From the NCBI GenBank assembly GCA_963693365.1, contig CAVNZM010000001.1, positions 6,340,907 to 6,404,906 of the forward strand: a DNA stretch of 64,000 nucleotides, written 5' to 3'. This stretch comes from Amoebidium appalachense (lineage: Eukaryota; Protista; Ichthyosporea). Below the pieces are notes generated by a model that searched no databases, was not told the origin of the DNA, and worked only from the letters and a program-made list of their open reading frames with translations. The position numbers were made by a program, and so were the translations under genes. Shown piece after piece: positions 11,822-35,766 of this stretch (its first letter is position 1; each line of letters starts with the position of its first letter).

Positions 11822-14800
11822 ATGGGCCAGCCAACGCAAGCCCCCAGAAAATGGGGCTGGGTGATTCGTGTGTTGGTCACGTTTGGGTCAATTGTATCTG
11901 CAACCGCCCAAACGCTAGACCAGTACAGCTGCCAGAATGGAAAATATGATATTATTTTTGCACTGGATATGAGTGGGAGTATGTCCATGTCGTCTATTTG
12001 CCCGGACCGTCTCTGCTGGGTGGCAGGTGGGTTGGTGGGGTTTGGGTTTTGTTCGCATATGTATTCGTCCTGTACAGGGCCGCTAAGCTCGAGAGCCATG
12101 CCATGTTTGTAGGGGGATTCAGGATGTGTTGCAATTGGTAGTGCCATAATGCTATCAAAACATGAAAAATCTAAACCACGGCACCCGAATACGAACAAAC
12201 AAACTCACCGAACACATGTTATAGAGCAGAAGAACAGGCGTTCACATATCATGGTTTACTAAACCCAACTCTAGAACATAATAGTACTTGTTGTATATAC
12301 GGTACCTCAGGCTGAGTGCATGTGGTCACATGAAGTCAATGGGCCATTTGGTGTACATATGTACCCCATCAATAATTATGATGTACTGAAACGCTATATG
12401 TTGATTCCTTAGCAGTGTGTGTGGGAAAATATCCGCAGGAAGTGATTTGGACGGCTGAACAAATTTGACTTCCCATCCTGCCTTTCGATGCCATCTGTTT
12501 TCCATTTTTGATTTCCTCTTTTTGTTGCCCACTAGCCGCAAAACATGACGCACCAAACATCATGATCAGTACGTACCGCTTGACATGCCCGGGTGTTAGC
12601 AAGTACATACACCCTCACATTCATTACTCGGGCACAAAAACCCACATCTTGCATCAAGCGACTTTTGTTCCATACGTGAAAGAATATACAGTGACCCCAC
12701 TCTTACCAGCAGCTATTAGGACATGTACACACTTACACACCCAAGATTTCGATACAAGTTTTCATCGCAGCTCGACAACACACTTACCCATGAACACCCG
12801 TTGGCCATCATTTGCTCACACACCTCCCTTTTCAAACCCCCTGCACAGCGCGCAACTTCGTGAACGCATTCATCAACTATGATAAACTCACCATCGCACC
12901 TGACTTCTCGCGCGTCGGAATCGTTCGGTTCGGTGGAACCTGTTCCTTGTGTTCAAGTACATGCGGTGCCTCAGATTGTGCGACTAGTCCCCTAAGAAAC
13001 CCCTCTTATGTCGACGTCACTAAGTTTCCGTGCTGTGGAAACGGCGGCTGCATGGGGTGTACCGCTGCAGCATTCCGGGACCTCGCTTTGACCGACGCGG
13101 TTGCATCAAGGAAAACCGATCTGGTGAACTTTGTCTCGCAACTTCAGTGAGTTTCCTGCCCCCTTCCCCCCCCCCCCCCCCCCCCCCCCTCCCCTCCTCC
13201 CCACCTTCCCCTCACCCCGTCCCCGTCATTTTGCAAGGTTAACAAATTTTGTTCGCTTGGACAAGGTTTGCAAGCAAGGGGGATTATACGGCTGGCCTGC
13301 CGGTGCTATAAACTTGCCCACTGTGACAACTTTTTCGAAAGATTTTGCGGGTTCATGAACAAGTGCAACCTAACCGACTACCTTCACAGACGTAAAACTT
13401 TAATACAAGTGTGTAGACCATGGCACGGGCACACGGCACACTCGTTTCTGCGTGATAATTGTCCCGCCCATCCACCCCCCTCCTCCTCCCCTCCTCCCCT
13501 CCCTCCTTGTCCTCCCCCCCCCTCCCCCCCCCCGCCCCCATCCTTCCCCCCCCCCCCCCCCCCACACACACACACACACACACACACAACAGACGTACCA
13601 CCACATCCATCACCACCTCCCCCCTCCCCCCCCCCCTCCCCCCCTCCCTTTCATCACCACCATCCCACCCCTCAAGGAAAAAGAACACAGCTAATATCAA
13701 ACAAAATCCTCTCCCCCCCCCCCCCCCCCCCCCCCGTCCCACACACACACACACACACACACACACACACACACACACATATACACCCACCCCTACCCTC
13801 GGGGCATGGCTGCAGGAATTGGGGAATCCTTGAGTCCACAGCTTTTTTTATTTTTATTTATTTATTTATTTTTTATTCGGAGGGGGGAGAGAGGGGGGGG
13901 GGGGGGGGGGATGCTCACTCATGAATACCCAACTACTTCGATAGGTATGGTGGTGGTGGCACGCCCACAAAATTGGCAGTGGACACGGCAGTCAACATGC
14001 TCGATAACGCGCCACGCACTGGATCGACAAAAATCCTGGTGGTAATCACCGATGGACAGAGTAACGACGGCTCCGTACCGGCAACTGATACTGCGAGATC
14101 GAAAGGGATCACTGTAATCGCAGTCGGGGTTGGAAATTATAACGCCGCAGAAATATTGGGTATGGCTGGTGGGAATCCGAACCTTACGCTAACAGTGCAG
14201 GATTTTACGACTCTGTCGACAAAACTGTCGACCCTGATCAATCAAGTCTGCACGGTTCGTTCCCCCCCCCCCCCCCCCCCCCCCCTACCCCACTCCACCC
14301 CTTCTGTTTCCCCCCACCTCTCATTCAATATGGCCCCGAGTTAAATGTACAGAAAGTGTGTGTGTGTTTTTTTTTGGGGGGGGGGGGGGGGGGGGGGGAA
14401 GGGGGATTTTTCGTGGGGAGGGGGGGGGGGGGGGGGGGGGGGTAGTAGTGTTGTGACGGTGGACAGTTGCCCATCTAACATTGGGTGTCAGGTGTCACAC
14501 AAGCATTATTTCTGTAAAGGGCAAAAAGAAAAAAGAAAAAAAATCCGCCATAGAATTTGGCTTACGCAATAGTATCGAGTGCAGCTTGTGCCCCGCAATG
14601 GTGCATGGAGTGACTGGACTGCCTGGGCCACCTGCCCCCAGTCATGCACCCCCATCAACACTAGCCCTAGGACGGTAACACGCACAAGGTGGTGCGATAG
14701 TCCGGCACCAAACGCCGCAGGTGTGTGTGTGGATGGATGTGTGGGTGTGGATATGTGGATGGGGTTATGTAGGGAGTTTGTGTTTGTGATGGTGGTGGGG

Positions 14801-35766: not shown

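Follow-up and report, generated by a model that had tools for sequence, protein, structure and literature searches.

A probable SibA-like receptor gene with a thrombospondin-repeat stalk and a double-NPxY tail, interrupted by a frameshift in the ichthyosporean Amoebidium appalachense

Integrin-independent coupling to talin has been shown in Dictyostelium, where SibA, described as combining a von Willebrand factor A (vWA) domain and a Gly-rich transmembrane (TM) segment with two NPXY motifs, uses the proximal one of these motifs to bind talin A (PMC9197732) and transmits force through talin without an integrin heterodimer (PMC12686525). The latter source asks if such coupling also occurs in other unicellular eukaryotes. 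In the available part of a survey of Amoebozoa (10.1101/2020.04.29.069435), Sib proteins are seen only in dictyostelids, and type II integrin beta proteins (ITGBs) carry unusual stalks. Here, we analyze a stretch of 64,000 nucleotides from the ichthyosporean Amoebidium appalachense (contig CAVNZM010000001.1, positions 6,340,907 to 6,404,906 of the forward strand; the whole stretch is called the window, and all positions are counted within it), which carries a gene for a vWA protein with a long stalk of thrombospondin type 1 repeats (TSRs), one TM segment, and two NPxY motifs in its tail. Read through two 4-base duplications, the gene probably encodes a SibA-like single-chain receptor coupled to actin by talin, and the copy in the window, frameshifted before the TM segment, is likely a recent loss-of-function allele.

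In the sequence-based gene model, 29 exons, bounded throughout by GT-AG splice sites, run on the plus strand from an ATG to a stop codon (Table 1) and specify a signal-like stretch, a vWA domain with a complete metal ion-dependent adhesion site (MIDAS), 19 F-spondin-type TSRs, a single TM segment, and an NPLY-x8-NPIY tail. All of these parts had been listed by the first-pass annotation, made from the letters alone, and they were confirmed by Pfam searches (20 of the 29 exons scanned), our own repeat profile, hydropathy, and sequence. Its single-chain vWA-TSR-TM receptor with an integrin-beta-type double-NPxY tail is likewise supported by the domain calls and by the TM-tail geometry. Its reconstructed protein of ~1595 amino acids agrees with ours, which is 1597 amino acids long only with both duplications masked as X; the frame is not open, and the frameshift before the TM segment had been overlooked.

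The MIDAS of the head is assembled from DxSxS in exon 1 and from a threonine (GGGT-P-T) and an aspartate (VITDG) in exon 3. A search of the PDB with exon 3 placed collagen VI, PTMP1, vWF-A3, and integrin alpha-I domains on top, and neither TRAP, MIC2, nor any integrin beta was among the matches listed (the best 60 of 99 hits). The three vWA exon pieces gave only PF00092-type matches and none to Integrin_beta at E<=10, the Asp pair that forms the ADMIDAS was not found behind DxSxS in the head, and exon 2 alone had no Pfam match and nothing meaningful in the PDB, with no beta subunit. By sequence, the vWA domain thus appears to resemble collagen-VI/alpha-I domains and not the integrin beta-I domain. 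Exon 2 also holds an insertion of ~46 residues with 8 Cys (12930-13075), not present in the amoebozoan vWA aligned to it, which may shape ligand specificity. In beta-I domains, the specificity loop presumably occupies roughly the same position. We dropped a reading of it as such a loop, there being no integrin match in Pfam or the PDB.

These results bear directly on whether the protein could be a divergent integrin beta that pairs with an alpha subunit and has TSRs in place of the legs. Its tail is integrin-beta-like, its TM segment is of the GxxxG type, the Cys-rich insert lies about at the place that we take to be that of the specificity loop, and the amoebozoan type II ITGBs show that unusual stalks are described for beta proteins (10.1101/2020.04.29.069435, in part). 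With no Integrin_beta match, no beta subunit among the PDB hits listed for the head or for exon 2, no ADMIDAS Asp pair, and no HDRKE-type motif, we regard this as very unlikely. Next to the membrane, [11 protein letters not shown] stands in place of such an alpha-clasp motif, and no PSI, hybrid, or I-EGF/Cys-rich legs were found in the stalk, which is filled by the 19 TSRs; these absences, noted in the first-pass annotation, hold by sequence and by Pfam. The locus therefore shares with integrin beta a MIDAS-bearing vWA-fold head and a TM segment followed, at a distance similar to that in beta1, by NPxY-x8-NPxY, and differs from metazoan, holozoan, and amoebozoan ITGBs in lacking the beta-I signature, ADMIDAS, PSI, hybrid, I-EGF, and alpha-clasp elements.

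Along the stalk, TSP1_spondin was matched in 13 of the 16 pieces at E<=0.1, five of them above the curated cut-off. The count of 19 repeats comes from a profile built from nine of the gene's own pieces, so the scores (11-76 bits) are partly high by construction, and the same profile gave one spurious negative-score match inside the vWA domain. Against the PDB, the TSR profile found F-spondin first (E=5e-7), then MIC2 (0.003) and TRAP (0.1). Neither Ig_SibA (PF24619) nor Dicty_CTDC was matched in the exons scanned.

The order vWA-TSR-TM is that of the ectodomain of the TRAP family (TRAP, MIC2, and CTRP), although proteins with vWA and TSRs are also described in cnidarians (PMC5446238, in part), so that the pairing recurs. 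A TRAP-family homologue, inherited or transferred and driving gliding-type motility, would account for the shared order. TRAP tails, as described in the available part of the source, end in a penultimate or antepenultimate Trp and contain 18-30% acidic residues (PMC2169348), whereas the 46-residue tail here has no Trp and 7 acidic residues (15%, just below that range), and the vWA domain and TSRs rank with animal-type domains and are not closest to TRAP or MIC2 in the PDB. We consider such a homologue extremely improbable. The first-pass annotation had proposed a chimera of TRAP and integrin; with the vWA domain nearest collagen VI, PTMP1, vWF-A3, and alpha-I domains, the TSRs nearest F-spondin, and a tail unlike that of TRAP, this proposal is not supported, and the kindlin binding and the role in motility suggested with it found no support in the present analysis. 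Another long TSR array on a single-pass protein is that of THSD7A, described as having 21 TSRs, partly F-spondin-like, a short tail, and an association with focal adhesions (PMC8523383). Compared by description, THSD7A differs in having no vWA head, and an NPxY pair is not in the part of its description available.

The single TM segment (hydropathy 1.96) is encoded by exon 28 together with the end of the last TSR, RRKK, and NPLY, and exon 29 contributes NPIY and the stop codon. NPLY sits 27 residues past the basic residue that first follows the TM segment, and the 8 residues between NPLY and NPIY span the last intron. This succession of TM, proximal NPxY, and distal NxxY is that of an integrin beta tail, with the geometry of beta1; it is out of frame here, and the junction of exons 28 and 29 is predicted from sequence. 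In a low-confidence single-sequence fold of exon 28 (pLDDT 59), one helix (25-72) extends into the cytosol.

We surveyed this tail module by scanning DNA for NP[LIMF]Y-x8-NP[LIMF]Y. A match was kept if a TM segment preceded it by 18-49 residues and a stop codon followed within 20 residues. In metagenomes (118 loci, 6 of 64 parts scanned), 16 of 98 in-frame matches were kept, and the mirror control gave 1. Viral sequences yielded 1 of 98 (120 loci, 55 of 64 parts) and prokaryotes none of 105 (121 loci, 16 of 64 parts). Three loci (L105, L205, and L236) with a hydrophobic stretch 2-4 residues from the motif and short open reading frames (ORFs) had been removed before the count of 17. In the kept metagenome matches, the motif lies at the C terminus, 20-27 residues from the TM segment; the combination of TM and double NPxY is not due to chance. 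The ectodomains of 13 of the 17 ORFs were scanned: three have vWA and Dicty_CTDC, two CTDC only, three EGF-type repeats, two are Ig_SibA or cadherin-like (one Ig_SibA), three are without family, and none carries TSRs.

The 16 environmental loci (L022, L038, L045, L049, L059, L061, L064, L065, L071, L073, L078, L079, L083, L097, L104, and L112) encode single-pass proteins that end in TM and NPxY-x8-NPxY and span at least five ectodomain types (vWA plus CTDC, EGF, furin/VSP-like, SibA-Ig/cadherin-like, Ser/Thr-rich, and unassigned Cys-rich). Together they form a wide family of putative talin receptors. When a tail profile was scored against 7988 candidates, it picked out 29 proteins. Many of these are the seed loci or their close relatives, and the 29 include a vWA-CTDC protein of the amoebozoan Planoprotostelium (P0026) and a protein of Orpheovirus; a TSP1 domain or WxxW motif occurred in none of the 29. 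The Orpheovirus protein (L193:4989-8603, minus strand; P0029), from a giant virus of amoebae, is cadherin-like, resembles Sib proteins, has the same TM and double-NPxY tail, and is possibly host-derived.

The double-NPxY tail is therefore not exclusive to integrins. It is often found on ectodomains of protist type that are otherwise unrelated, some of them with a vWA head, and for this reason SibA and the amoebozoan vWA-CTDC receptors are a closer precedent for our gene than TRAP or integrin. Like SibA to SibE, the product is a single-chain type I protein with a vWA ectodomain, a Gly-rich TM segment, and two NPXY motifs. Unlike them, it has a stalk of 19 TSRs and a vWA domain right behind the signal peptide, and its host is a holozoan. 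The Sib stalk consists of Ig/cadherin-like domains, and the first-pass annotation had already noted that SibA is without a long TSR array. With the amoebozoan vWA-CTDC proteins (P0026, L022, L071, and L079) it shares a PF00092 vWA domain, alignable at ~22% identity, a Cys-rich repeat stalk, one TM segment, and the same tail geometry. Those proteins have CTDC instead of TSRs (no WxxW in 29 of 29), an extra ~180-220 residues before the vWA domain, and about half the length; we found no paper on their function.

A profile of 18 TM-tails, searched against the PDB, placed integrin beta1 first (E=5e-4) with both motifs in register, and 10 of the 18 alignment members matched Integrin_b_cyt in Pfam at E<=1. 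SNX17-type recycling acts on NPxY receptors, and it is conceivable, if unlikely, that the motifs here serve trafficking adaptors of the PTB/FERM type as sorting signals for endocytosis or endosomal recycling, which would make the protein a receptor for capture or uptake and not a force-bearing one. NPXY is described as a general PTB recognition motif (PMC9197732), and the genome-sequenced ichthyosporeans are reported to retain one PTB domain each (PMC4342544), both sources being available in part. The 8-residue spacing and the distance to the TM segment match those of integrin beta1 and of SibA-like and amoebozoan receptors, which speaks against this reading; the two roles are compatible.

As to the state of the allele, a 4-nucleotide tandem duplication in exon 27 puts the TM segment and tail out of frame: with the donor at 34251, exon 27 has 187 nucleotides and the frame ends at 35168 without TM or tail. 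An earlier in-frame model with a donor at 34220 was overturned by the observed donor. The evidence for the latter is a single contig of depth 4.4 from run X18 (organism B; guessed by the tool to be RNA), which matches 34127-34251 without difference and whose next 30 bases are those that open exon 28. Because this contig joins exon 27 to exon 28, the TM exon belongs to the TSR gene, so the separate genes that the first-pass annotation had named as a possible refutation do not apply to exon 28; for exon 29 the connection is read from the sequence. The duplication is also present in the DNA of two further runs, X1 (organism A, study P1) and X2 (organism B, study P2), either of which may itself be the source of the window. 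Identical letters in the DNA of two studies and in a spliced contig exclude an assembly error. Run X8 (organism C, 95-99% alike, compared at exon 27) is without those four letters, and there the frame is open; of the four differences counted, the one listed substitution (n=1) is synonymous in the frame of the TM exon and nonsynonymous in the shifted frame.

With the first-AG acceptor at 27588, the second duplication, in exon 20, likely stops translation at residue ~1080 (stop at 28823). We took this acceptor because 26 of the 28 introns have no second AG within 29 nucleotides upstream of theirs; with the alternative, 27595, the gene would have a single GAG acceptor. It is improbable that this allele yields the ~1595-amino-acid protein, and truncation in exon 20 would, to judge from the sequence, yield either a secreted fragment with the vWA domain and 11 TSRs or a decayed message. 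Both breaks are 4-nucleotide tandem duplications, a footprint that would be expected of staggered-cut fill-in repair or of transposon excision.

Several observations weigh against the reading of a talin-coupled receptor with a broken allele. The match of the tail profile to integrin beta1 rests mostly on the 17 other sequences, which were chosen for the motif, and the exon 28 piece from the window, where the second motif is missing, gave no match to Integrin_b_cyt or to any PDB chain. No orthologue was found with exon 28 (0 of 1832 candidates), exon 3 (0 of 606), or tblastn on metagenomes (0 of 602), the queries being short exons and the collections poor in intron-rich eukaryotes; phmmer over 1.84 billion representatives returned a single match (P0001), a bacterial-type repeat protein that we rejected as spurious. 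In-frame bypasses are available for both breaks (27595 for exon 20; 34099, 34130, 34160, or skipping of exon 27), the X18 contig begins downstream of 34099 and is compatible with its use, and the message with the frameshift is still spliced.

The last of these points raise the question of whether the allele is functional, with alternative acceptors or skipping of exon 27 giving a membrane form and the duplications tuning a secreted against an anchored isoform. Apart from the in-frame AGs upstream of both breaks and the splicing of the gene, exons 26 and 28 are phase-compatible, TSR 12 scores 27.3 bits with acceptor 27595 versus 28.7 bits, and in-frame exon skipping is described in ichthyosporean focal-adhesion transcripts (PMC6855841, in part). 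Two independent bypasses would be required, however, given the number of nearby AGs, chance alone would probably place one of them in frame, the only contig from a transcript contains exon 27 with the duplication, and organism C is without it. We find a functional allele quite improbable and retain the loss-of-function reading.

In an intact copy, the vWA domain would capture a ligand through an acidic residue coordinated to Mg at the MIDAS, and the TSR array would act as a long rod that holds the head at a great distance from the cell surface. With low confidence, the TM helix is modeled to continue as a membrane-proximal helix into the cytosol, where, by analogy with SibA, the proximal NPLY would dock the F3 lobe of the talin FERM domain and pass on actomyosin force, and the distal NPIY would dock a second FERM/PTB protein. 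An alpha subunit would not be needed. Such a scheme has a setting in related organisms: the beta tails of Capsaspora are described as recruiting talin through NPXY/F (PMC6450878), and an ichthyosporean is reported to co-express integrins and the cytoplasmic adhesome during cellularization (PMC6855841), each source being available in part.

SibA already provides an example of a single-chain vWA receptor with two NPxY motifs in its tail, and amoebozoan beta-like proteins with odd stalks have been described. The first-pass annotation held that the system may be undescribed, and no described protein that combines vWA, TSRs, TM, and NPxY was found in the sequence searches or in a literature that covered few subscription journals and left supplements out of scope (for example, the tables of 10.1101/2020.04.29.069435). 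A TSR-stalked form of the Sib type and a non-integrin example in a holozoan were not found in either, which are weak negatives. We read the gene as a TSR-stalked form of the SibA-type single-chain receptor, with a holozoan host and broken in this strain.

Table 1. Features of the receptor gene; positions are those of the window.
Feature	Positions	Strand	Evidence or remark
Exon 1: ATG, signal-peptide-like stretch (residues ~1-29), first vWA strand with the DxSxS MIDAS motif	11822..12026	+	Sequence
Exon 2: middle of vWA, Cys-rich insertion of ~46 residues behind the second strand	12849..13146	+	Gene model, alignment
Exon 3: C-terminal half of vWA, MIDAS Thr and Asp	13945..14254	+	Pfam VWA E=7.2e-15
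Exons 4-27 and first part of exon 28: 19 F-spondin-type TSRs	14585..34997	+	Pfam, own-piece profile, PDB search
TSR exons 4-9 (exon 4 acceptor 14573 or 14585, frame unchanged)	14585-14720, 15327-15444, 16192-16374, 17411-17546, 18356-18451, 18583-18691	+	
TSR exons 10-15	19398-19506, 20341-20453, 21312-21497, 21837-21949, 22668-22792, 23750-23918	+	
TSR exons 16-21 (exon 17/18 junction uncertain by a few codons)	24706-24897, 25440-25493, 25897-26171, 26871-27019, 27588-27674, 28749-28898	+	
TSR exons 22-27	29367-29477, 30132-30326, 31048-31179, 31922-32195, 33054-33355, 34065-34251	+	
4-nucleotide tandem duplication, exon 20 (TSR 12)	27596..27603	+	Sequence; GAG acceptor 27595 is an in-frame bypass
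4-nucleotide tandem duplication, exon 27 (TSR 19)	34170..34177	+	Reads: in X1, X2, X18; 4 letters missing in X8
Intron 27, spliced out, linking TSR exons to the TM exon	34251..34968	+	Loose end of X18 contig is identical to exon 28 over its first 30 bases
Gly/Ala-rich TM helix with small-xxx-small motifs, then RRKK	35040..35108	+	Hydropathy; low-confidence model
Membrane-proximal NPLY	35190..35201	+	Sequence
Exon 29: NPIY (35743-35754), three residues, stop	35737..35766	+	Sequence; first AG past a CA tract; predicted junction

The introns of the receptor gene are rich in poly-C and CA tracts, a style that resembles ichthyosporean genomes, and intron 6 contains ~8 tandem copies of a 65-nucleotide unit (16680-17200). 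Tail-to-tail with the gene, on the minus strand (~38300-49700), lies a receptor tyrosine kinase gene with a Cys-rich EGF-like exon (48632-48919), Thr-rich stalk exons, a TM segment near 45430-45505, and kinase exons that match PK_Tyr_Ser-Thr in Pfam (E=1e-19) and have EGFR, JAK, MuSK, and Trk as their best PDB hits. Receptor tyrosine kinases are described as marking Holozoa and as expanded in ichthyosporeans (PMC4342544, in part), and this neighbor accordingly points to a holozoan host. On the other side and divergent from the receptor gene, two minus-strand exons (5431-5697 and 8826-9101) belong to a membrane protein gene (DUF2456, E=2e-9). Farther downstream, a minus-strand gene (54098-57953) contains an RRM (RRM_1, E=4e-6) and a Lys/Ala-rich exon. 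Plus-strand exons at 60284-62095, pieces of which gave no Pfam match, are what we take to be of the PA2G4/Ebp1 type.

The survey indicates that the double-NPxY tail extends far beyond integrins and Sib proteins: it was present at 16 of the 118 loci drawn from 6 of the 64 metagenome parts, or in ~200 stretches if extrapolated. Tentatively, and with somewhat less than even confidence, we suggest that TM plus NPxY-x8-NPxY is a portable talin plug used by microbial eukaryotes on many unrelated ectodomains (vWA-CTDC, EGF, cadherin-like, mucin-like, and vWA-TSR), with integrin beta as only one client, and that the gene described here encodes a non-integrin, alpha-free talin receptor, in a lineage related to animals, whose TRAP-like ectodomain was reached independently. 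A Sib-type receptor in a holozoan lineage with true integrins would put both solutions side by side among the relatives of animals. Given the broken allele, annotation of this strain or experiments on it would miss the receptor; if our reading is true, naturally broken and intact strains would lend themselves to comparing talin adhesion without integrins near the origin of animals.

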